Shown here piece after piece: positions 1,000-40,100 of a stretch of DNA of 49,013 nucleotides. The notes beneath the pieces were generated by a model. It ran no database searches. It had not been told where the DNA came from and saw only the letters and a list, made by a program, of their open reading frames with translations. Source of the DNA: a virus. Every line of letters starts with the position of its first letter. Positions within the stretch are counted from its first letter, which is position 1. Made by a program: the position numbers and the translations under genes. The stretch lies in UHGV virus genome UHGV-0069399. One strand, 5' to 3'.

Positions 1000-2022
1000 A
1001 TGTCCAACATTAATTTATTCGATGATGTAGTGCCTTTAGAAAAACAACATCCAATATATACAATGATGAAAGAAGAACGCTACAAACCGGAGAGAGATGT
1101 AATTAATCAATGGGCAAAAGGATTTCAAGACCGAGACAATAAATTTGCTAAAGAATTTCAAACAAGTTTTGAACCTTGCCTATGGGAATTATATCTTTTT
1201 GCCTATCTGAAAGAATTAGGCTTAAGGAGCGACTTTTCATACGACGCTCCTGACTTCGTCGTCAATGATCCAGATTTTTGCATTGAGGCAACTATTGCAC
1301 TTCCAGCACAAGGAGACCTTGGGGCGCATGGTTTCAGTAAGGAAGATATGCCGAGAGATTTTAATAAATTTAATTCTGAAGCATCTATTCGACTTAGTAA
1401 TAGCTTTATATCAAAGGTTAAAAAATTAAGATCGAGATATTCTCTACTTCCTCAATGTAAAGAAAAACCTTTTGTAATCGCCATAGCTTCATTCGACAGA
1501 CCTTTTGCACACTTTGCAGCAGCTAGGCCCATACTTGCAACATTATATGGCCTATACCATGATGAAGAAGCAACCATTGAATCAGGGTCAAAGAGTATAA
1601 TTTCTTATAACGTCGATGCTGCAGTAAAAAAAGAAAATGTTAATATAGACATGGGGTTATTCTGCACACCTGAATATTCGGATGTAAGTGCTGTGATTTA
1701 TAGTAGTTTAGCTACTTGGGGAAAAGTAAGAGCCCTTGCGGACAACCCTTCTGCTCTAACGATTTATACATCATTTACTCCAAAGGAAAACTCATTATTT
1801 CCTGAAGTTCATCAAGCCTTAAAAAGTGATTATGTAGAACATCTAGCGGATGGGTTATATATTTTACACAACCCATTTGCCAAGCATCCATTGCCTAAAG
1901 AGACACTAAGTCATCCAAGAATAGCGCAAGGTTATATTGAGCCAGATGGATACGTTAATTTTATAGCGCCAGATGATTTTCTTTTATTGCGTTTTTTACA
2001 ATCGTTAAATTTGAAAGAGTAG
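1000..2022 (+). CDS. hypothetical protein, AT-rich islet gene A (~340 aa)
   Basis: Long ORF in markedly AT-rich DNA. ATG at 1000 (MSNINLFDD) preferred over the ORF-track start at 952, which has no RBS. No family recognised by eye. Confidence 0.6.
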   Translation: MSNINLFDDVVPLEKQHPIYTMMKEERYKPERDVINQWAKGFQDRDNKFAKEFQTSFEPCLWELYLFAYLKELGLRSDFSYDAPDFVVNDPDFCIEATIALPAQGDLGAHGFSKEDMPRDFNKFNSEASIRLSNSFISKVKKLRSRYSLLPQCKEKPFVIAIASFDRPFAHFAAARPILATLYGLYHDEEATIESGSKSIISYNVDAAVKKENVNIDMGLFCTPEYSDVSAVIYSSLATWGKVRALADNPSALTIYTSFTPKENSLFPEVHQALKSDYVEHLADGLYILHNPFAKHPLPKETLSHPRIAQGYIEPDGYVNFIAPDDFLLLRFLQSLNLKE

Positions 2023-2256
2023 TAATTATGGTCACATCTAATTACTTTACATAGATACCCACTAGAAAGGGGACTTTTCTTAAAACTCAGCCGTCAAAGA
2101 TTTAGAGTGGTTATCTACTGGTATGCTTCCGAATCTGCCAGTGCGGCTGAGTGGATTTCTAGTACCCTCTAGAAGATTTAGTTGATTAAAACAGGTCATG
2201 TATCATCTTCAGAGTCAACATATCGCCAACTGTCTATCATTCCATTGAGGAAAAGT

Positions 2257-3030
2257 ATGTCATCAGAAAATTTTGTCACCTTCTGGCTCGCTAGAGCCGA
2301 TCTTCCATACTTTCTTGAACCTCATGAATTTTACGTTTCGGAGGCCAAGCGTAGACTTCTATCGCAGTTTGGCGATTTAGAACAAGAAGCAGAAAGGAGG
2401 GAACAACAGTATTTGGAAGCTACCTCAAAATATTTCGATCCTGATAACGATGATCCAATGGCTGCCTACGAGCAAGCCTACCACGTGGGAATTAATTATG
2501 TATGGTCGCTTCTGGAGATGCAAAATACCGTGTTGTTGGCATTAACGGCAGGAATGTACCACCAGTTTGATAAAAAACTAAGAGAACACACCATCAAAGA
2601 ACTAAGTAACTGGTGCAAAAGAGAATTAATTACTCCCATGATCTGGAATATAACTTTCCATCAGCTTATTGATTTACTCGAATGGATTGGCCTCAAAATC
2701 AATGGAACCGGATACGGAGAGAGGATCAAAGCCTGTAACTTGGTAGTAAACGTATACAAGCATGGGGACGGGCCTGCGCATCAAACACTATCATTCAATC
2801 ATCCTGAGTACTATCAACACCCTACCGATGTTCGAGGTACGCAGAACATACATGACCATGATGATTTACATGTATCAGAAGAGCAATTTGTAGAGTTTGC
2901 TGACGCAATAACTGAATTCTGGAAAGCAGTTCCAGAGAATTGCTATTACTCAGATCTCAAAGAAGAACCCAAATGGTTGAGTAAAGTCGTAACAAAATTC
3001 GATAAAAAACAGAAGGGAAATAGGGACTAA
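2257..3030 (+). CDS. hypothetical protein, AT-rich islet gene B (~257 aa)
   Basis: ORF in AT-rich DNA; ATG at 2257 (MSSENFVTF) is preceded by GAGGAAAA at RBS spacing. No family recognised. Confidence 0.6.
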   Translation: MSSENFVTFWLARADLPYFLEPHEFYVSEAKRRLLSQFGDLEQEAERREQQYLEATSKYFDPDNDDPMAAYEQAYHVGINYVWSLLEMQNTVLLALTAGMYHQFDKKLREHTIKELSNWCKRELITPMIWNITFHQLIDLLEWIGLKINGTGYGERIKACNLVVNVYKHGDGPAHQTLSFNHPEYYQHPTDVRGTQNIHDHDDLHVSEEQFVEFADAITEFWKAVPENCYYSDLKEEPKWLSKVVTKFDKKQKGNRD

Positions 3031-3138
3031 TTACCCATCTCAAAACATCAAGTTTGCAGTGCCCTGCTCCCCGTTTATTAGTATGGAAGTTAACAATGTC
3101 TGCTTCTGACACATAACAGCCCTTAAGATGGTAACTCG

Positions 3139-3188
3139 CCGTCATGGGGTGTCGGGGGTCGGAGGTTCAAATCCTCTCGTGCCGACCA
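3139..3188 (+). other. 3' ~50 nt of a tRNA-Pro-like gene (anticodon arm through T-arm, acceptor 3' strand and ACCA); 5' half absent - integration-junction (att core) remnant
   Basis: GGTCGGAGGTTCAAATCCTCTCGTGCCGACCA is a canonical tRNA T-arm plus acceptor 3' strand plus discriminator A plus CCA, resembling enterobacterial tRNA-Pro. The complementary 5' acceptor strand (CGGCACG) is not present upstream, so this is not an intact gene. Confidence 0.6.
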
Positions 3189-3201
3189 AAAATCCTCGAA
3201 G

Positions 3202-3229
3202 AACCAGCCTGTTACGGCTGGTTTTTTTA
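3202..3229 (+). terminator. rho-independent terminator directly after the tRNA fragment
   Basis: AACCAGCC-tgttac-GGCTGGTT hairpin followed by a run of 7 T. Confidence 0.6.
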
Positions 3230-3318
3230 TGCCTGTTTTCTGAACGGGGAAGCAACGGGGAATAATTGGGGAAAAACCCCGACACAAAACATCGACTTTA
3301 CCGTAAAGTTTCAGCTAT

Positions 3319-3708
3319 TCACATCACTGGGCAGTCATCAAACTCCGCGTTCCTGGCATCATTAATGATGTACGTGATAACACCAAATATTGCGTGTGAA
3401 GAATTATAGCCATCACCGTCTTCTGGCAGCACTTCTCTTCTCCCGTTCTCCAGATTTATCAGGTGGGGCTGAGGGTGAGTTCGGTATCGCTTGATCCTGA
3501 ATTCCCCATCTATCGCGCATATCAGCAGCGAGCCATCACAGGCTGAAAGCGACGCGTCCACAACAAGTAGTGCCCCCTGGATTATCCCTTCCCTGAAATG
3601 TGAACACGATGCCCGCATGAAATAAGTCGCTGCGGGCTGGCTGATTAGCTGTTGATCGAGGGAAATCCTTGTTTCAACGTAATCACTGGCAGGTGAAGGG
3701 AAGCCCAT
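3319..3708 (-). CDS. UmuD'-like protein (LexA/S24-fold, begins at the cleavage-site Gly; catalytic Ser apparently replaced)
   Basis: Translation from ATG 3708 (MGFPSPASDYVE...ATYF...LLVVD...IDGEFRIKR) aligns along its length with E. coli UmuD from Gly25 (GFPSPAADYVEQ...), as recalled from memory. GGAGG RBS 8 nt upstream of this ATG; ATG lies 2 nt after the stop of the upstream small ORF. The ORF-track start at 3807 would overlap that ORF by ~97 nt. Confidence 0.7.
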   Translation of the reverse strand: MGFPSPASDYVETRISLDQQLISQPAATYFMRASCSHFREGIIQGALLVVDASLSACDGSLLICAIDGEFRIKRYRTHPQPHLINLENGRREVLPEDGDGYNSSHAIFGVITYIINDARNAEFDDCPVM

Positions 3709-3710
3709 GG

Positions 3711-3953
3711 CTATAGTCCTCCGTTTGGATTGAAAAGCTGAAAGGTACGGTTCTCCCCTTCCTGCGTTGATACATCGCGGAATGATGTCACATACCACTC
3801 GATCCATTCGTTAGCCTGCTTCATCGTCCAGTTCCAGTTAACCTTGCTCAGTTCCTGGACAAACCGCTGTGTGGTGACGGTCTTCCGGCCATTAGGTTCT
3901 TGCTGTATCGAAGCATGCCAGGCCATTTCAATATCGCTGCGTCGTGGCATCAA
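3711..3953 (-). CDS. hypothetical small protein (80 aa), first gene of the LexA-boxed operon; candidate SOS-induced regulator/antirepressor
   Basis: GAGGGG RBS ~7 nt upstream of ATG 3953; LexA box 40 nt upstream; tightly coupled to the downstream UmuD'-like gene. No family recognised. Confidence 0.5.
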   Translation of the reverse strand: MMPRRSDIEMAWHASIQQEPNGRKTVTTQRFVQELSKVNWNWTMKQANEWIEWYVTSFRDVSTQEGENRTFQLFNPNGGL

Positions 3954-6362: not shown

Positions 6363-7037
6363 TTAATCATATGCAGCTGTGTTTATCGCCGTTATCACAA
6401 TTCCACTATTTGTCGTACCGATTGAAGAGCCGCTTGCTGTTGTTGATGTAAGTCCTTTTATTCTCGTTCCCGCACCTTCATTGAAGCAACCTGTACCCAC
6501 ATCCACAGACTGAATGATTGGCTGTCCACCAGGTGCCGAACCAGCATGAAGGAGAACAGATCCCAGCCCCATCGGATTTATGGCCCATTTGCCTGCCATG
6601 TATGTATCAATGTTAAGCCCACCACTTACAGCACCTGGTGAACCAATAGTTGTAAGGTCGCTTAATACCCGGGACTCATTCGTAAGTACCAGTGTCCCTT
6701 CGGCATCCCATATAGCCACCCCCCAGGCAGGAAGCGTAAGCGGATATATGGCAAAAAAATAGGCCTCAAGGACAAAAGCCGATCCCCTGTAATTAGACGC
6801 ATTAACACTGAACGTATTGCCACTTTTTGAAGCTGATATCTTCGCCGGGGCGCTGGTTCGTGCAAATGCAATCCCTCCCTTCTGACCGTCGATAGTAACA
6901 GACGCCGAAACACTGTTAAAATTCCCCCCAAAAGTTGAGTTTACAGTGACTTTCCGGTAAAGCGTCATTGGTGTGGAATCAGGCGTGATAAAAGGGTTCC
7001 CGTTAGGTAATGAAATCAATGCGCCATATTTAGCCAT
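6363..7037 (-). CDS. hypothetical tail-associated protein (224 aa) downstream of J
   Basis: Tightly packed after the 104-aa ORF and J; Gly/Ser/Thr-rich, fibre-like composition. Confidence 0.6.
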   Translation of the reverse strand: MAKYGALISLPNGNPFITPDSTPMTLYRKVTVNSTFGGNFNSVSASVTIDGQKGGIAFARTSAPAKISASKSGNTFSVNASNYRGSAFVLEAYFFAIYPLTLPAWGVAIWDAEGTLVLTNESRVLSDLTTIGSPGAVSGGLNIDTYMAGKWAINPMGLGSVLLHAGSAPGGQPIIQSVDVGTGCFNEGAGTRIKGLTSTTASGSSIGTTNSGIVITAINTAAYD

Positions 7038-13267: not shown

Positions 13268-14881
13268 ATGAATATTGTGCATTATGCAGCCATTGGAGCT
13301 GTAGCTTTCGTAGTTGTTCTAACAATTTTGGTGATAAACATCATTAAATTAAAGTCAGCCAAGGCTGATGCAGCAGAAAAGGCGGCAAAACTTGAGCGTT
13401 ACGCGTCAATCACCAATGCTGAAACAGAAGCTGAACGAATCGTGAATGCAGCTAAGCAAACCGCAGAAGAGTTAATTATTGATTCGCAGAATAACCTTGA
13501 CGAGGCAAAAGCTGAAGCAGCCAACACTATTGCAGCCAGTGAAAAAGATGCAAGATCTATAACACAGCGTGCGGAGGATATTCTATCAGATGCGCGTTTA
13601 GCAGCTAAGCGAATGAACGCAGAGGCGCTGACCGCTGTAGAAACACAAAGAGTCAAGCGTGCAGAAATTGAAAAACAGATTGATGAATTGCGTAAATCCT
13701 ATCGTGAGAAAAAAATCACTTACGATGAGCTGACGGAAGCCCTGTCAATTTATAAAGATGATATGGAATTTGCTGACATGGGGTTCTATGCACCACACTT
13801 CGATTTTGATACCTCGGCTAGTTTTCAGGATGCGATCAAGGCATGTCGCGAACGGCAAAAAAATCTGCTACGTGACAAAACTGAATTTGGCGCAATACAT
13901 TGCCCTACTGAATGGACGGTTGGCGGCTCTAAAAGTGAAGGTCGGAAAATGACCACTCGCGGCATTCAGATGACAGCACGTGCATTCAATGGTGAGTGTG
14001 ATGCAGCTATTGCAAACTGCACATTTAAAAACGTTTATCAAATGGAGCAAAGAATTTATAAAGCCTTTGATGCCTTGAATAAGATGAATGAGGTTAACCA
14101 GATTTACATCAATCGTGCTTTTTTAGATTTGAAGCTGGATGAACTTCGACTTACACATGAATATCGTTTGAAAAAACAAGAAGAACGAGAAGAACAACGT
14201 GAAATCCGCGCTCAGATGGCTGAGGAGAAGCGAGCTCAAGCCGAAATTGATCGTGCACTTCGAGAGGCTGAAGATGAAGAACGCCGCGCCCAAAAAGCGT
14301 TGGATAAAGCCCGAAAAGAAATGGAATCGAAGCTAGCCCAAATGACAGCTGAGCAAGTTGAGAAACACCAAGCGAAGGTATCCGAATTAGAACATGCCTT
14401 AGAAGAGGCATTGTTGAAAGGCCAAAAAGCTCTTTCTATGGCTCAACAAACTAAACGCGGCCACGTGTACGTTATCTCTAATATTGGTTCGTTTGGTGAT
14501 GATGTTTTTAAAATAGGAATGACACGTCGACTTGACCCTCAAGATCGAGTGGATGAACTGGGTAGTGCATCAGTCCCATTCCTGTTCGATGTTCATGCAA
14601 TGATTTTCAGTGAAGATGCACCAACAATGGAAAACATGCTCCACCAGCGTTTCAATGAGCAACGCACTAACCTAGTTAATAAGCGTAAAGAGTTTTTCAA
14701 TGTAAAATTAAGCGATATCAAAGATGCTGTGTTTGAGATCGCAGGTAAAGATGTAGATTTTATCGAAACAGCAACTGCTCAGCATTATTATGAAACAAAG
14801 GCAATTCGTAAGCAGAAAGCGGATATCATTTCAGTTGTTCCTCAAGAGGAAAAACTACCTAAATTTGCGGACGCAATATAA
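13268..14881 (+). CDS. membrane-anchored coiled-coil protein with DUF4041-like core and C-terminal T5orf172 (MUG113, GIY-YIG-like) domain; inserted accessory gene
   Basis: 537 aa on the opposite strand to the flanking tail genes. N-terminal hydrophobic helix (AAIGAVAFVVVLTILVINII), long charged coiled-coil stretches, C-terminal GHVYVISNIGSFGDDVFKIGMTRRLDPQDRVDELG...FNVKLSDIKDAV matching the T5orf172 signature. Own AT-rich promoter region and terminator. Confidence 0.85.
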   Translation: MNIVHYAAIGAVAFVVVLTILVINIIKLKSAKADAAEKAAKLERYASITNAETEAERIVNAAKQTAEELIIDSQNNLDEAKAEAANTIAASEKDARSITQRAEDILSDARLAAKRMNAEALTAVETQRVKRAEIEKQIDELRKSYREKKITYDELTEALSIYKDDMEFADMGFYAPHFDFDTSASFQDAIKACRERQKNLLRDKTEFGAIHCPTEWTVGGSKSEGRKMTTRGIQMTARAFNGECDAAIANCTFKNVYQMEQRIYKAFDALNKMNEVNQIYINRAFLDLKLDELRLTHEYRLKKQEEREEQREIRAQMAEEKRAQAEIDRALREAEDEERRAQKALDKARKEMESKLAQMTAEQVEKHQAKVSELEHALEEALLKGQKALSMAQQTKRGHVYVISNIGSFGDDVFKIGMTRRLDPQDRVDELGSASVPFLFDVHAMIFSEDAPTMENMLHQRFNEQRTNLVNKRKEFFNVKLSDIKDAVFEIAGKDVDFIETATAQHYYETKAIRKQKADIISVVPQEEKLPKFADAI

Positions 14882-15524: not shown

Positions 15525-18500
15525 CTATTTTGGCTGGAACTGCCTACCAAGGAGGCCATCACTTCGAGTTGCCCTCATAAGGATCTCCGTCACCTTAGTT
15601 TCTATTTCCTTCCCTAACGCCCGCGCTGCTGCGCCTCCGTCTCCAGATGTGTTAGATGTTGCATTGCCCTTATTATCGACATAAATATCAATGTTGACCT
15701 GCGGCTGGGCTCCACCTCCACCCTGCGCCCTTACACCAAGTCTTCCAGCAGAATCCCGTGTCAGCGGCATGATGGCCTCTTCACCTGCCTCAGCAAAAAC
15801 TCCACCTTTGGCGAATTTAGATGCCCCTTGGAAGGTGAAATACTGAGGAGAGTCGTAGACGCCATTCACGTACTTACTGAGGCCCGGAGACTCATAGACT
15901 CCGCCTTTTGCGTTCGGGGTGAATGATGGAACAGCGAATGATTGCCCGCCCCCAGCCGAAGCAACAGAGCCACCACTGATCCACCCCATTGCGGCCTGCA
16001 CTGCATAGGCAACCATGAGGCGGTTCGTCACATCAAGGATCATCTTGAGCATGGATTTGCCGAATTCTTTAACTGATGCTTTGCCAGTGGTCATCAGCTC
16101 AGTCAGCATGTCGCCCAAGCCAGTCAGCGTGGAGCTGGCGACGTTTTTCACAGCATCGTATGTGTTAGTGGCAGCGTCCAGATACTCATTCCATCCGCTT
16201 AAAGCACCAGCCTTCCAATCACCGCGAAGCTTATCCTCTTCGGCGTAGTAGTTACGAAGGGCTGCCAGCTCTTTCTCATAGCCAGCATCTTCTAGCTTTC
16301 CGCCACCATTCAGCCATCCCTGACGAAGCTGCGCTTCTTCGGTCATTCGCTGAGCCATACGACTGCTTAAACCTGACCCGCTACGTAACGCCTCAGACTT
16401 TTCAGCCATCTGCGTTACATACTTATTAGCCTGCTGTGCCAGGCCGTTAATCTTCTGCTGGGCCTCTACTTCTTTGTTCTTCTGATCCACAACCTTCGCG
16501 GCATTCAGAATGGCTTCTCGGCTAGACAGGAGTGACTTCTCCTGCGCGGTCAGTGCGCGGGTTTTGGCAGCCTCGTCCAGTTCCACAAAGCGTGACTGTT
16601 GTTTGCTGAATTCGGTATTTTTGGCGTGAATATCGCCGGTCTGACGCAGGGTTTCGAGGGTTTCCGTTAAGGTCCTTGCCTGCGCCCGGTAGTTCTCCAG
16701 GGTGCGATCGCCAGCATCGAGTGTTGCTTTCGCTTCTTTTGTCTTTTTGGCTGAGTCTTCTGCAAGCTTCGAGACTGCGTTTCTCGACTCGCGGCTCGAG
16801 CCCCCTTCCCCTTTAACGCTGGCACCTCGCGCTTCGGCTTCATAGCTTGCCTGTGCATTAGGCGCAGTGACCCGCTTCCAGAGTTCATCGTAGCGTTTTT
16901 TGTTCGCTGCGATCTCTTTGTCAGCTTCCGCCCCGGCCTTTTTCATAGCCTCAACATCCATGCCGAGGAAGTCGGTTATTGCTCCGCCGCCCGGGATTTT
17001 CTCAGCCCATCCTGCAATGGTCCCAGTAAACTTGGAATCCAGAGAGGTAATGTTGAGGAACAGGTCCTTTATCGAAGCTTCAACCAGGTTGAAAATATCG
17101 ATCACCTGATTTCCCCAGGCGCGGACAGTAATCCCGATATCATCAAAGGAGTCAGATGCTGTTTTCTTCAACCACTGCCAGGACTGCCCAATATTGTCGG
17201 TGGCCCTGTTGGTCTCTTCTGCGCGCTTTGCCATAACGCCAGCAAACAGGTTGATGGCTTCGTTTACCGCCGCCTGCTCCCCCTTCTGCTTACGCAACTG
17301 GATGATGTGCTTCATCATGGCTTCATCAACAAAGCCATACTGCTCATTCAGGCTGGCCAGCCCTTTCACCGGGTCGCTGACAATCTTGCCGAAGTCGGAC
17401 ATCGCCGTTTTGGTGTCACTGCCAGCCTTGCCCATCAGAGTGATGGACGTGGCGATCTGCTTCATCTGGCTGGCGGTATATTTACCAGTGTCATTCAGCG
17501 TAACCAGCGTATCTACGGTGGAACTGATGGATGTATTCGTCTTGCCGGCCACCTCTTCAGCAGCCTCATTGAGCTTCTGCATTGAGGAAAAACCAGCGCC
17601 ACCCATCATGATGACCGATCGCGCCACTTGGTCGAATTGCTCGGATGAACTATATGCCGCAGTAGCCAGCAGACCAACCGTACCGACCAGACCTGCCAGC
17701 GCAATAGTGGTTGGGTTAATCATCCCAGCCATGCTGCGGATGTATTCGCCGACGCCAGTGAGCGCCCCCTGAACCCCGCCAAACTGGTCTTTAATCTGCC
17801 CGCCCTGTTGCAGCAGGATCAGGAAAGGAGACTGCCCACCAGCCAGCTGCGTGGCGATATCGGTGAACTGTGCTGGTAGTGTGCGCATTGCTGCGCTGTA
17901 CTGGCCGACAGATATACCGGCACGACGCGCCGCAGCCTCCTGGCGAGATAGTGCCTCTGGCAGCACGTCAGCCACGCCAGACAGGCGCTCACGCGTCTGG
18001 TTCAGGATTGTATTGAAGTGCTCGAACTGCGCGCCGTTAATACGCCCCGCTTCGAAGTGTGCCACCAACTGCGCATGCTGCTCATCCAGCGAGTTAAACG
18101 CGCGGATAGTCGGGTCGATAGAGCCCAGCAGGTTTTTCAGTGCTGCTGATTGTTTCTCGGCAGCCTGGGTCGCGGCCAGTTCTGCCTGGGCGCGCGCCGC
18201 TGCTTCTCCGGTATCCGTCAGTTTTAACCGGGTCTCGTCCAGGATTTTGTTGTAGTGCTGAAAATCATCAGTATCCAGGAAACCTTTGGTCTGGAAGTTG
18301 CGCAGTGCGGCCTGTTGTTCATCCAGCCGGTTCAGCGCCTTGTTAACTGGATCGATATTCTCCAGCAGCCCCTTCAGCGCGATCTGCTGTTCCTTGATAC
18401 CTTCAGTGCCCTGTTTCGCAGACTCAGCACCAGCACGGAATACGCTATTAAGGTCATCAGCTTTGCCTACGGCACCCGCCGCGGCTTCACCGAGTTTATC

Positions 18501-18572
18501 CAGCTCGTTGCTGGCTGTTTTCAGGTCAGAAACATCGGCCCGTAAAGTAATCGAGGCGATCTGGTCAGTCAT
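15525..18572 (-). CDS. tail tape measure protein
   Basis: 1015 aa, Ala/Gln-rich coiled-coil composition, position between G/T and M. Confidence 0.9.
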   Translation of the reverse strand: MTDQIASITLRADVSDLKTASNELDKLGEAAAGAVGKADDLNSVFRAGAESAKQGTEGIKEQQIALKGLLENIDPVNKALNRLDEQQAALRNFQTKGFLDTDDFQHYNKILDETRLKLTDTGEAAARAQAELAATQAAEKQSAALKNLLGSIDPTIRAFNSLDEQHAQLVAHFEAGRINGAQFEHFNTILNQTRERLSGVADVLPEALSRQEAAARRAGISVGQYSAAMRTLPAQFTDIATQLAGGQSPFLILLQQGGQIKDQFGGVQGALTGVGEYIRSMAGMINPTTIALAGLVGTVGLLATAAYSSSEQFDQVARSVIMMGGAGFSSMQKLNEAAEEVAGKTNTSISSTVDTLVTLNDTGKYTASQMKQIATSITLMGKAGSDTKTAMSDFGKIVSDPVKGLASLNEQYGFVDEAMMKHIIQLRKQKGEQAAVNEAINLFAGVMAKRAEETNRATDNIGQSWQWLKKTASDSFDDIGITVRAWGNQVIDIFNLVEASIKDLFLNITSLDSKFTGTIAGWAEKIPGGGAITDFLGMDVEAMKKAGAEADKEIAANKKRYDELWKRVTAPNAQASYEAEARGASVKGEGGSSRESRNAVSKLAEDSAKKTKEAKATLDAGDRTLENYRAQARTLTETLETLRQTGDIHAKNTEFSKQQSRFVELDEAAKTRALTAQEKSLLSSREAILNAAKVVDQKNKEVEAQQKINGLAQQANKYVTQMAEKSEALRSGSGLSSRMAQRMTEEAQLRQGWLNGGGKLEDAGYEKELAALRNYYAEEDKLRGDWKAGALSGWNEYLDAATNTYDAVKNVASSTLTGLGDMLTELMTTGKASVKEFGKSMLKMILDVTNRLMVAYAVQAAMGWISGGSVASAGGGQSFAVPSFTPNAKGGVYESPGLSKYVNGVYDSPQYFTFQGASKFAKGGVFAEAGEEAIMPLTRDSAGRLGVRAQGGGGAQPQVNIDIYVDNKGNATSNTSGDGGAAARALGKEIETKVTEILMRATRSDGLLGRQFQPK

Positions 18573-18887
18573 TATTTCGTCTCCTTATGCATTACCTTGA
18601 GAGCCTCGCTTTCCATAATCTGAAGGTCAGCCATGCAGGCCGCCGCATCCTCAACCCCGTGTAACTTAAACATCCAGGGGAGAACATTGTAATCAAGGCC
18701 GGTCGCCCCGCTCGCACCAACGCGCCATTGAGTCGCCAGTACAGAGAAGATGGTGAAGGCTTTCCATACCGACGGCAGGATCCCCACCTCTTCCTCCACG
18801 TCCTCAGGCATCAAACCAAAAGCGCTCAACTCCGCGAGAGTCGGTCCCGGCGTGTACAACGCTGCGGCGACCTGCCTCAGTTTTTTT
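18572..18887 (-). CDS. tail assembly chaperone T-frame extension (G-T fusion by -1 programmed frameshift)
   Basis: G-frame reads CGC GAA AAA AAC TGA; slipping -1 on the A-run (18881-18887) continues as KKLRQVAAALYTPGPTLAEL into this ORF; arrangement is identical in logic to lambda G/G-T. Confidence 0.7.
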
Positions 18888-19215
18888 CGCGGATACCCAT
18901 CAGTTCTTTGGTGTAGGCCAGACCGATGCTGTCGAAAGCGCGAGGATAGTTCTTCAGGAGGACAATTACGTTATCGCGAGTGAACTCGTCAGGCAGGGCC
19001 CAGCCTTCGACGATTTCCATCAAGTAATCGGCCTGCGGTTCGACGGGGGCTTTTTTACCTTCAGCTGATTTCTGCAACTTCTCATCCATTACGCGCAGCT
19101 CTTCGAGCGTCTTATGGCGGGAAGTGAAGGTCAGTTTGCCGTCTTCAGCGCCGGCGCGCGGGATGCTGGCGGTTACGGAAAAGGTAGGATTCGGGATCAG
19201 AGAGAATTTGGTCAT
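18877..19215 (-). CDS. tail assembly chaperone G
   Basis: 112 aa directly upstream of the tape measure gene; ends at the slippery site. Confidence 0.8.
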   Translation of the reverse strand: MTKFSLIPNPTFSVTASIPRAGAEDGKLTFTSRHKTLEELRVMDEKLQKSAEGKKAPVEPQADYLMEIVEGWALPDEFTRDNVIVLLKNYPRAFDSIGLAYTKELMGIREKN

Positions 19216-19256
19216 GAAGTTATCTCAGAATGGCCCGGCGAACCGGGCATAATTGG

Positions 19257-20189
19257 TTAGCTGATAGTGACAACGCACGCAGCCGATGTGATGGTTTTGC
19301 CTGCGGCGTCGGTGACTTCGCAGGTGTAAGAGCCAGCATCACCGGATGCCACAGACGGGATGTTGAACGTCGAGGCCGTTTTGCCCGGAATGGCTGTGCC
19401 ACCCTTCTTCCACACGTAGGTGTAAGGTGCTGAACCGCCCTGCATGACCACAGCCAGGTCCAGAGCTGAGCCAGTAGCAACAGATTTTGTTGGGGACAGG
19501 TCAGTCAGGAATGCCAGCGGCACAGCGGAGGAATCAGCGATCGGGTAAATCTGCATATCCGATTCGAAGTTCATGCGCGCTTCGTTACTTTCCACGGCAT
19601 TGATTTCGGTACGTGGTACCTTCTGGAAGGACACTTTGGCAGAGTAGTAGCGATCAGCTTTACCGCGTGGGTTATGGAACCATACCGCCGTAGTATCGCT
19701 CGACTCGTCGAGTTCAATCAGGCGTTTGTAGATAGCCAACTGCGGGTCATGAGCGAAAGTGTAGACCTGCACCACAGCGTTTTTAAACGTCGGGATAGTA
19801 CGGGCCTTATCATCCTCCAGGAACTGGATGCTGATAGTCTGCTGGTCACCACCTTCGGTAGATAAGGTCATGACCTGAGGCATGGTGATCCACGAATCGA
19901 TTTTACGAAGCGTACCCGCACCGGTACCTGCCGGAAATTTCGTGGTATCGGTGGTATCGAACGCTTCCAGCACGATTTTAGTACCGGTGACTGATTTGAC
20001 GCGCACCACCATGTTGTCGAGCTTCAGCCAGCCAGAGCTGACCTGGACGACATCACCCGCGAGGATGCCAGCCGCAGAGGCAACGGTCAGTTCGCATTCC
20101 GTTGCATTGGATGCCGCAGTGAAGACAATCGGCGCAAGATAGGCCTTGGCCACGTTTACACGCGACCCGTTAGGGATTGCGAATGCCAT
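19257..20189 (-). CDS. major tail tube protein with C-terminal Ig-like (Big_2-type) domain
   Basis: 310 aa; C-terminal KSVATGSALDLAVVMQGGSAPYTYVWKKGGTAIPGKTASTFNIPSVASGDAGSYTCEVTDAAG is an Ig-like decoration domain as on lambda gpV. Confidence 0.85.
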   Translation of the reverse strand: MAFAIPNGSRVNVAKAYLAPIVFTAASNATECELTVASAAGILAGDVVQVSSGWLKLDNMVVRVKSVTGTKIVLEAFDTTDTTKFPAGTGAGTLRKIDSWITMPQVMTLSTEGGDQQTISIQFLEDDKARTIPTFKNAVVQVYTFAHDPQLAIYKRLIELDESSDTTAVWFHNPRGKADRYYSAKVSFQKVPRTEINAVESNEARMNFESDMQIYPIADSSAVPLAFLTDLSPTKSVATGSALDLAVVMQGGSAPYTYVWKKGGTAIPGKTASTFNIPSVASGDAGSYTCEVTDAAGKTITSAACVVTIS

Positions 20190-39339: not shown

Positions 39340-39792
39340 CTAAATGATGTGAAGGCGCGGCTCCCCGTTTTTCGGCTCAGGCCACTGACGCTGCTTATTC
39401 ACCGCCAACTTTTCTACCATCGCCTGGTTAATCTGCTCGTCACTGATACCGGCACGACGTTGCGCATCCCATAACAGGAATTGCATGTCAGCCCATTCGC
39501 TAAGGTCGCCTGGTTCAGCAGCAGCCTCGAGTGCTTCTTTGGAAAGGTGCTTCAGCGGACCAACTGGACCGACATCGCCGAAAGTAGCCAGTGACCACGC
39601 TGCATGTTCACGGCGTACTTGTTCGCGGGCCATCGACTCCAGAACCCCATTAAACACCTTCACAGCATCAGCCATTGCGTAGCCGAGATTGCCGCCGTCG
39701 CTTTGTGCTGCTGCTTTGCTGAGTATTTCTCTTATCTGGTGCAGGCGATTGAGTGATACAGGACCGTTCGCCGGGTGGTTGTTAGTGGTCAT
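39340..39792 (-). CDS. MazG-like/DUF550-type nucleotide pyrophosphohydrolase (putative)
   Basis: Start chosen at MTTNNHP; HLSKEALEAAAEPGDLSEWADMQFLLWDAQRRAGIS resembles prophage dATP/dGTP pyrophosphohydrolase-like proteins. Moderate confidence. Confidence 0.5.
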   Translation of the reverse strand: MTTNNHPANGPVSLNRLHQIREILSKAAAQSDGGNLGYAMADAVKVFNGVLESMAREQVRREHAAWSLATFGDVGPVGPLKHLSKEALEAAAEPGDLSEWADMQFLLWDAQRRAGISDEQINQAMVEKLAVNKQRQWPEPKNGEPRLHII

Positions 39793-40100
39793 ACTGATGC
39801 TCTCCCGTAAAATGCCAGAACCCGCTTCATCGCCGGACTTGTACGGCATACTGAAGTAACCATGTTTTTTCTCATGTTCGATTTGATCTGCTTGATATTC
39901 AGTTCCCCGCCTAGTTGCAGCGAATAGACCGGGTGATGTGGCTCCCCAGCGCGAATAACTACTGCCCTACGTACCAGGTGAAGCAGCAGGTTGTGTGCTT
40001 TCTTGCAGTCGCATCCCAGCAGGTTCTGAACCTGACGCGGGGTTATGGTCTGGTTAACCCGAAGGAAATCGACAATTGCCCACAGTGATTTGCTTGCCAT
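39789..40100 (-). CDS. hypothetical small protein (103 aa), probably DNA-binding
   Basis: Basic small ORF between the DnaC-like and MazG-like genes, same operon. Confidence 0.45.
   Translation of the reverse strand: MASKSLWAIVDFLRVNQTITPRQVQNLLGCDCKKAHNLLLHLVRRAVVIRAGEPHHPVYSLQLGGELNIKQIKSNMRKNMVTSVCRTSPAMKRVLAFYGRASV

Follow-up and report, generated by a model that had tools for sequence, protein, structure and literature searches.

A probable −1 ribosomal frameshift at A AAA AAC joins tail assembly chaperone G to a DUF1799 T segment in virus genome UHGV-0069399

A −1 slip of the ribosome on the heptamer A AAA AAC very probably joins gene G of virus genome UHGV-0069399 to an overlapping DUF1799 frame, T, giving a programmed frameshift of the G/G-T type; we read this from the letters of the 49,013-nucleotide stretch that we analyzed (the window) and from those of its relatives. 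All features of the window described here lie on the minus strand. Gene G (18877..19215) is found in the list of open reading frames and codes in the 0 frame for a 112-aa tail assembly chaperone that matches Pfam PF08748 and phrog_569. Its 3′ end reads ...ATC CGC GAA AAA AAC TGA and its protein ends in ...ELMGIREKN; the codons given in the preliminary description are therefore right, and the minus strand, absent from it, can be added. The slippery heptamer, of the form X XXY YYZ in the frame of G, lies at the last two sense codons (18880..18886) and overlaps a run of seven A (18887..18881); a scan of the G/T overlap finds it to be the sole canonical X XXY YYZ there. Directly 3′ of it is the G stop TGA (18877..18879), a candidate "shifty stop" pause element.

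The −1 frame is already open inside G, where it overlaps the gene for 30 codons (18881..18970), and across the heptamer it reads ...KKLRQVAAALYTPGP.... Beyond the slip site it continues as the T segment (18572..18880), which comprises 102 codons (LRQVAAALYTPGP...KETK) followed by TAA and matches Pfam PF08809. The predicted G-T fusion is thus 112 + 102 = 214 aa long. It had been proposed that a −1 slip on the A-run leads into a 95-aa ORF in the T frame, and this agrees with the sequence: ORF finders and PGAP begin that ORF at a TTG (18857..18859), T-frame codon 8, and it makes up the 3′ portion of the 102-codon frame. The T stop TAA (18574..18572) has one base in common with the ATG of the tape measure gene (TAATG).

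From this anatomy and its conservation, both of which are seen directly, we infer the slip, its efficiency and the roles of the proteins as follows. Most ribosomes on G would end at TGA and release the 112-aa G protein. A few would shift backward by one nucleotide at A AAA AAC, with tRNA-Lys moving from AAA to AAA and tRNA-Asn from AAC to AAA, and would go on with CTG AGG CAG..., adding the 102-residue DUF1799 "T" to give the 214-aa G-T. By analogy with lambda, G and G-T would coat the tape measure protein through their G part and the rare T domain would recruit the major tail protein, with neither chaperone present in the virion. The junction is expected to read ...REKN-LRQV... if both tRNAs slip simultaneously and ...REKK-LRQV... 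if only the P-site tRNA slips or if the transcript itself is altered by slippage. The "KKL" junction put forward earlier is therefore sound as a conceptual −1 translation, whereas standard simultaneous slippage would keep the Asn.

The protein families and the gene order both place G and T in a tail assembly chaperone locus. G matches PF08748 (Phage_TAC_4) over its full length (E=4e-25; 88.8 bits, where the gathering cut-off is 21.1) and phrog_569 with E=1e-36, while the T segment matches PF08809 (DUF1799; E=1.5e-16; 60.8 bits against a gathering cut-off of 26), from T residue 21 onward, and phrog_680. In addition, the single profile phrog_17368, of 213 positions, is matched by G at positions 13-107 and by T at positions 115-213, in that order, so fused products are represented in this family. 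Directly 5′ of G lies the gene for the major tail tube protein (19257..20189; 310 aa; phrog_584), which contains a Phage_tail_3 domain (E=3.6e-45) and a C-terminal Ig-like domain (Ig_3/Ig_2/I-set). On the other side, the gene for the 1015-aa tape measure protein (15525..18572; Pfam TMP_2 and Tape_meas_lam_C; phrog_24) starts at the ATG that overlaps the T stop, behind a strong SD, AAGGAG (duplex -9.3 kcal/mol). The order major tail - G - T - tape measure thus has two small ORFs between the outer genes, as the G/G-T class requires. The wider module reads, on the same strand, terS, terL, portal, head morphogenesis protein, scaffold, major capsid, Ad1, Hc1, Neck1, tail terminator, major tail, G/T, tape measure, M-, L-, K-, I- and J-like proteins and tail fibre. 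The structural genes are complete and collinear, and together with the G/T junction they support the earlier view that the prophage tail module is intact, at the level of its ORFs. No relative of G was found by sequence in the PDB, and an AlphaFold2 model of G, made from an alignment of 11 sequences, reached a mean pLDDT of 54.9, too poor for a fold search that would set it beside known tail assembly chaperone structures such as the spiral ones of Pell et al. 2013.

G-T frameshifting is widely conserved in long-tailed phages (PMC5009743), and lambda G/G-T is one of the closest systems described (Levin, Hendrix & Casjens 1993; Xu, Hendrix & Duda 2004, 2013, 2014; summarised in PMC5009743). The window resembles lambda in four respects: a pair of ORFs separates the major tail gene (V in lambda) from the tape measure gene (H), the second of the pair is read in the −1 frame and lacks its own start, G has a slippery heptamer close to its end, and a fusion is expected at a low level. 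However, lambda G and T belong to PF06894 (Phage_TAC_2) and PF06223 (Phage_tail_T) rather than to PF08748 and PF08809, and BLASTP of window G and T against lambda G and T gives no significant match (E=0.59 and 0.20). The lambda heptamer, G GGA AAG, is also placed differently, five codons before the G stop, whereas A AAA AAC abuts the stop here. Judged by these comparisons, window G and T are analogues of lambda G and T, not sequence relatives, and by profile their true family is the Phage_TAC_4/DUF1799 pair common to HK639, Dhillonvirus and the T1-like phages; homologues of PF08748 occur in roughly 1000 phage records. The conserved G/G-T mechanism claimed for this locus is supported by the gene order, the families, the −1 frame relation, the heptamer and the conservation, with the caveat that the proteins are not homologous in sequence to those of lambda.

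Within that family, the nearest phage is Escherichia phage HK639, whose region of genes 14/15 is 86.5% identical in nucleotides and 91% in G protein. Its junction, CGC GAA AAA AAC TGA GGC AGG, is identical to that of the window, and its T frame likewise has 102 codons. In HK639 and in E. coli prophage relatives, a further gene, absent from the window, separates G from the major tail gene. Further away stands Escherichia phage vB_ecoS_OzMSK (OzMSK), a T1-like phage (Drexlerviridae) whose CDS 030/031 are homologues of T1 gp40/gp39. Its G is also a PF08748 protein (E=3e-33), its A AAA AAC is followed directly by the stop, and its −1 T ORF of 107 codons has the conserved ATQWRVG...GLDYNVL core. 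The T1-like phages differ in that they are lytic, in a G only ~31% identical to that of the window, and in a GTA instead of a GAA codon before the OzMSK heptamer; in sister genera the motif is A AAG or A AAA and sits one codon ahead of the stop.

Existing annotation of these relatives is uneven. In OzMSK, a curated joined CDS at A AAA AAC is labeled "frameshifted product of tail assembly chaperone". PGAP lists "phage tail assembly chaperone" and "DUF1799 domain-containing protein" as separate genes in the E. coli prophage relatives, neither the PGAP nor the HK639 annotations show a frameshift, and the HK639 T frame is unannotated in RefSeq. A literature search on DUF1799 and PF08748 did not find an experimental demonstration of the frameshift in this family. 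The finding is chiefly of use for annotation: the correct model for the window would be G plus a joined G-T CDS with its junction at 18886..18880. This recoding type is already known, in a family where it is already annotated, and is in that sense textbook biology.

To follow the slip site among close relatives, we used 93 loci from genomes and viral contigs whose G is 86-96% identical; an alignment-based scan of viral sequences gave 80 close loci, and the distant lineages were reached with distant G proteins as queries. Across the 93 loci GAAAAAAAC is invariant in all but four. Of these four, one carries a still slippery AAT, another has A8, a third (L074) has A6 together with an extra G in a later G-run and resembles a homopolymer error, and in the last (L023) the DNA beyond G is replaced. 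The flanking codons GGN, ATH and CGN vary among close relatives; the slip heptamer does not. The G stop keeps its position, and its codon varies between TGA, TAA and TAG. Among 58 distinct G sequences, the minor-synonymous-codon fractions of the three slip-site codons sum to 0.017, whereas 33 other conserved two-fold codons average 0.161 each; the permutation p of ~0.004 is indicative only, because the sequences are related.

The arrangement is kept well beyond this clade, in at least ten distant lineages with 25-60% identity in G. In three distant groups, namely Serratia prophages (G 52-60% identical), a metagenomic contig (L098; 46%) and Dhillonvirus phages (44%), CGN GAA AAA AAC and a stop are followed by a −1 ORF of 100-107 codons that runs to the tape measure start. 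In T1-like phages such as OzMSK and tunzivis (~31%) the sequence is GTA/GCA AAA AAC TAA. In Dhillonvirus the −1 frame opens just two codons before the G stop, and the overlap therefore confines the shift to the A-run. Other lineages lack the heptamer and have a slip motif no more than one codon from the G stop: A AAG in Pectobacterium phage Ymer, Rogunavirus C119, loci L127-131 and Klebsiella phage KPJD2, A AAA in Webervirus PWKp17, and G GGA AAC + TGA in a Ralstonia phage. Since alternative motifs occupy the same place, it is slipperiness at the end of G that is conserved, not a particular sequence. Some relatives with the same architecture have short A-runs (GCA AAG GTC, CAA AAG and CGG GGA AAC).

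T might instead be made as an independent 95-aa DUF1799 protein, initiated with no frameshift at the TTG at 18859 or at the ATG found there in some relatives. PGAP starts its separate DUF1799 protein at this codon 8, which could serve as a start in 72 of the 73 close relatives compared (TTG in 50, ATG in 22, TTA in 1). An SD-like sequence, GAGGCAGGT (18870..18878), lies 10-15 nt 5′ of the TTG with an anti-SD duplex of -8.9 kcal/mol, and the OzMSK annotators remark that T "also has independent RBS". However, in the close clade the first seven T-frame codons, which precede any possible start, vary at third positions only (0/0/19 by codon position, at four variable sites), and the exchange of TTG for ATG at codon 8 is a conservative one of Leu for Met. 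In distant lineages codon 8 is no possible start, and across lineages the first ATG, GTG or TTG of the T frame falls anywhere from codon 5 to codon 55, whereas the N-terminal T peptide is conserved as L-x-x-A-x-x-x-[LFY]-[YF]...P...E[LF]-x-x-[FI]-G, also where that first codon is number 20, 30, 39 or 55. Starts so late would cut the DUF1799 domain, which argues against independent initiation as the general route. The SD-like GAGGCAGGT is missing in Serratia and in several T1-like lineages and is not conserved beyond the close clade, and initiation of T on its own would leave the conserved slip motif at the end of G unexplained. We consider this origin of T quite unlikely, and the TTG at codon 8 is probably just an internal Leu codon. 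It is possible that the HK639-like clade makes some free T from codon 8 besides the fusion, because a TTG or ATG with the SD-like sequence upstream is present there.

The −1 ribosomal slip was also weighed against slippage of the RNA polymerase. The site is a run of seven A (T7 in the template), and one added A in some of the mRNAs would put T in frame with G and yield G-T with the junction ...REKK-LRQ. Transcriptional slippage in bacteria is not known to be efficient on homopolymer runs shorter than about 9 nt. The A7 falls below that length, and relatives with the same architecture have just three or four A; moreover, every lineage keeps the run in exact X XXY YYZ register. Slippage on homopolymers is documented as a route of bacterial recoding (review PMC5009743), but as the A-runs of the relatives are too short for polymerase slippage, the mechanism shared by the family is most likely ribosomal, and we regard a transcriptional origin of G-T in the window as very unlikely.

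It is extremely unlikely that T is an unexpressed or decaying ORF beside an incidental A-run: AAAAAAC is frequent in the window (22 copies observed against 10.3 +/- 3.4 expected) and single relatives have damaged copies (an in-frame TAG in T of L058; T replaced in L023), but T is a recognised Pfam domain that varies 346/105/996 by codon position over its whole length in the close clade and by this pattern is under purifying selection, it is kept in the −1 frame over the at least ten lineages, and its stop is coupled to the tape measure start. AAAAAAC by itself is not rare in the window, while the frame and position of the copy at the end of G exceed chance.

We also searched for natural G-T fusions among relatives. 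With the fusion protein as query, a word-indexed database gave 15 matches, none of them across both halves, and an exhaustive search with the 214-aa fusion gave 1161 relatives (E <= 0.001), of which the best 150 are nearly all G-only or T-only. The sole clean in-frame fusion among these best 150 of 1161 is P0033, with 206 aa; as a "Rosetta stone" for G-T it gives weak support, because it comes from a small contig (811 bp) of low coverage (2.6x) and has no slip site. Two further sequences that span the junction, P0028 and P0023, were set aside: the length of their A-run differs and they go out of frame again, probably through homopolymer errors. The rarity of natural fusions is consistent with a need for both G and G-T.

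We then considered what might promote the predicted slip at the end of G. For the 100 nt past the heptamer, the minimum free energy does not improve on that of shuffled sequence (z=+0.87), and 22 diverse junctions folded to a consensus give -3.6 kcal/mol with 4 pairs and nothing stable or covarying. A hairpin or pseudoknot 5-9 nt after the heptamer, of the dnaX, IS3 or IS911 type, was not found, and an Rfam scan of the whole window gave no matches. Upstream, an SD-like element 6-17 nt 5′ of the heptamer pairs with -3.8 kcal/mol, which ranks it among the strongest 5% of the 12-mers of G. Four of nine lineages lack it, some have a stronger version, and its GGN codon varies at the third base; being weak and inconsistent between lineages, it is a doubtful candidate for a stimulator.

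Slow decoding of the stop directly 3′ of the heptamer would then be the most likely enhancer. We favor the stop codon because no RNA stimulator was found and because the heptamer is intrinsically weak in E. coli. The "shifty stop" idea reportedly goes back to Weiss et al. in 1987, and a boost of this kind from the adjacent stop is plausible for G-T. In E. coli, AAAAAAC gives 0.163% frameshifting without a stimulator (Sharma et al. 2014 supplement, PMC4066793), and 0.189% with the IS911 stimulators or 0.739% with the IS3 pseudoknot (Sharma et al. 2014, PMC4066793). In lambda, the G:GT ratio is ~30:1 (PMC5009743). The measured rates for A AAA AAC are well below the ~3% that the lambda ratio implies. 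Either the PF08748/PF08809 family needs much less G-T than lambda, or the adjacent stop raises the rate. We tentatively suggest, with more doubt than conviction, that the signal in the Phage_TAC_4/DUF1799 family is a "weak heptamer plus adjacent stop", at which the tRNAs would slip while awaiting the release factor. If this is true, the G:G-T ratio would be set by release-factor activity and by the identity of the stop, which differs between relatives (TGA, TAA or TAG). The family is also a convenient natural system in which to test stop-codon-assisted −1 frameshifting, because its heptamer is weak, always lies within a codon of the stop and has no detectable RNA stimulator.

The same heptamer is used in other systems. 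In IS1 insA-insB′ it produces a transposase fusion, not a phage chaperone, and we know of no stop codon adjacent to the IS1 A AAA AAC. That site is a proven −1 site of low efficiency with no established stimulator (PMC4066793); AAAAAAC is classed as low-efficiency, yet IS1 uses it (Sharma et al. 2014, PMC4066793). We count the working of A_AAA_AAC in IS1 in the absence of an established stimulator in favor of a frameshift at the end of G. A_AAA_AAC is also the g-t site of the archaeal virus HCTV-2 (PMC5009743), and in the gp12/gp13 chaperone of Acinetobacter phage vB_AbaS_Loki an AAAAAAC beside the stop is a predicted frameshift site (PMC5313236).

The choice of protease matters for detecting the G-T fusion by mass spectrometry, which had been suggested as a check. 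Trypsin would cut the junction R-E-K-N/K-L-R into peptides of only 2-3 residues, and tryptic mass spectrometry would therefore miss it. Glu-C would give a junction peptide of usable size, K[N/K]LRQVAAALYTPGPTLAE. Its form would also distinguish the type of slip: KNLRQVAAALYTPGPTLAE corresponds to simultaneous ribosomal slippage, and KKLRQVAAALYTPGPTLAE to P-site-only slippage or transcriptional slippage.

Finally, we scanned the putative genes of the whole window for in-frame X XXY YYZ heptamers that open into a −1 ORF 100 or more codons long and extending past the 0-frame stop, and found two such cases among 50 in-frame heptamers. The second, an in-frame A AAA AAC at ~39870, was rejected as a frameshift site. 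The gene downstream of it encodes a dATP/dGTP pyrophosphohydrolase, whose ATG follows the SD sequence GGGAGAG and overlaps the upstream TGA as ATGA, an ordinary start/stop coupling.

Copies of the junction between G, the tail assembly chaperone gene, and T, the segment in the -1 frame, differ in the database in the length of the A-run that carries the slip site. Specifically, the related locus L074 has an A6 run (about 1830) that fuses G and T in frame, the junction of the related protein P0028 reads REK-LIAV, and a second protein, P0023, is read into the +1 frame. Because additional frame breaks are present in all three, these variants look like homopolymer sequencing errors. A further locus, L058, has a TAG in frame within T. 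Given the A-run variants and this locus, tallies of natural fusions, in which G and T share one frame in the DNA, need caution.

One related locus, L145 (ENA ERZ27336856 NODE_101157, 173-793), encodes a 206-aa protein in which the Phage_TAC_4 and DUF1799 domains share one frame; the protein lacks both the slip site and the last ~10 residues of G (...VDVYL|LRAAVRAIY...). We consider it a candidate fused variant, carried on an 811-bp contig at only 2.6x coverage. In the metagenomic relative L023 (IMGVR_UViG_3300010279_000018, altered region about 1836-3336), homology ends exactly past the A-run, the junction reads GAA AAA AAT TAG, and the place of T is taken by a P4-type integrase truncated to its Arm-DNA-bind_3 and SAM-like domains. 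Further replacement DNA matches E. coli regions annotated as Icd-like and Ash-family. Either a P4-like satellite remnant has inserted at the G/T junction of this relative, or the contig is chimeric.

We also found another in-frame A AAA AAC in the window, at 39864-39870 on the minus strand, after which the -1 frame is open for 174 codons. It lies at a pair of minus-strand ORFs, 40100..39789 and 39849..39340, the downstream one encoding a dATP/dGTP pyrophosphohydrolase (PF04447). The ATG of the pyrophosphohydrolase (39792-39790) is preceded by a Shine-Dalgarno (SD) sequence and overlaps the TGA of the preceding ORF as ATGA, an arrangement indicating plain translational coupling, and we therefore rejected a frameshift at this site. 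Across the whole window AAAAAAC occurs 22 times, against 10.3 +/- 3.4 expected from dinucleotide-preserving shuffles, an approximately two-fold excess that involves both strands and was matched in 0 of 100 shuffles. Neither tRNA genes nor Rfam matches were found in the window.

Upstream of G, the major tail tube protein ends in an in-frame C-terminal Ig-like domain (19257-19560, minus strand; residues about 232-303; Ig_3/Ig_2/I-set), a domain found at the C-terminus of many siphophage tube proteins. The 41-nt gap from the major tail gene to the start of G contains a perfect GC hairpin, GCCCGG-TTCG-CCGGGC (19233-19248, minus strand), with no T-run after it; the equivalent position in Escherichia phage HK639 carries an annotated terminator. 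The SD of G is weak (-2.7 kcal/mol). Together, the hairpin and the weak SD may lower expression of G, T and the tape measure gene relative to the tube protein. In HK639 and in E. coli prophage relatives, one further gene follows the major tail gene and precedes G (HK639_13, L001 2255-2935; E. coli EC09, L095 645-1436); it is annotated as hypothetical or as 'phage tail tip fiber protein', and the window lacks it.

A 537-aa gene (13268-14881, plus strand) is located between the tape measure and M-like minor tail genes, on the strand opposite to the tail operon that encloses it; on the tape measure side, a 162-aa ORF of unknown function adjoins the tape measure gene. The 537-aa protein is a full-length match to the anti-phage defence protein PD-Lambda-1 (PADLOC, E=5e-201) and contains the Pfam domains DUF4041 and T5orf172/MUG113. 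This makes the gene a defence moron carried within the tail module. The moron at window 6363-7037 (minus strand; phrog_425, 'membrane associated protein') sits between the J-like and tail fibre genes, and a UmuD-like gene (window 3319-3807, minus strand) lies past the tail fibre gene.
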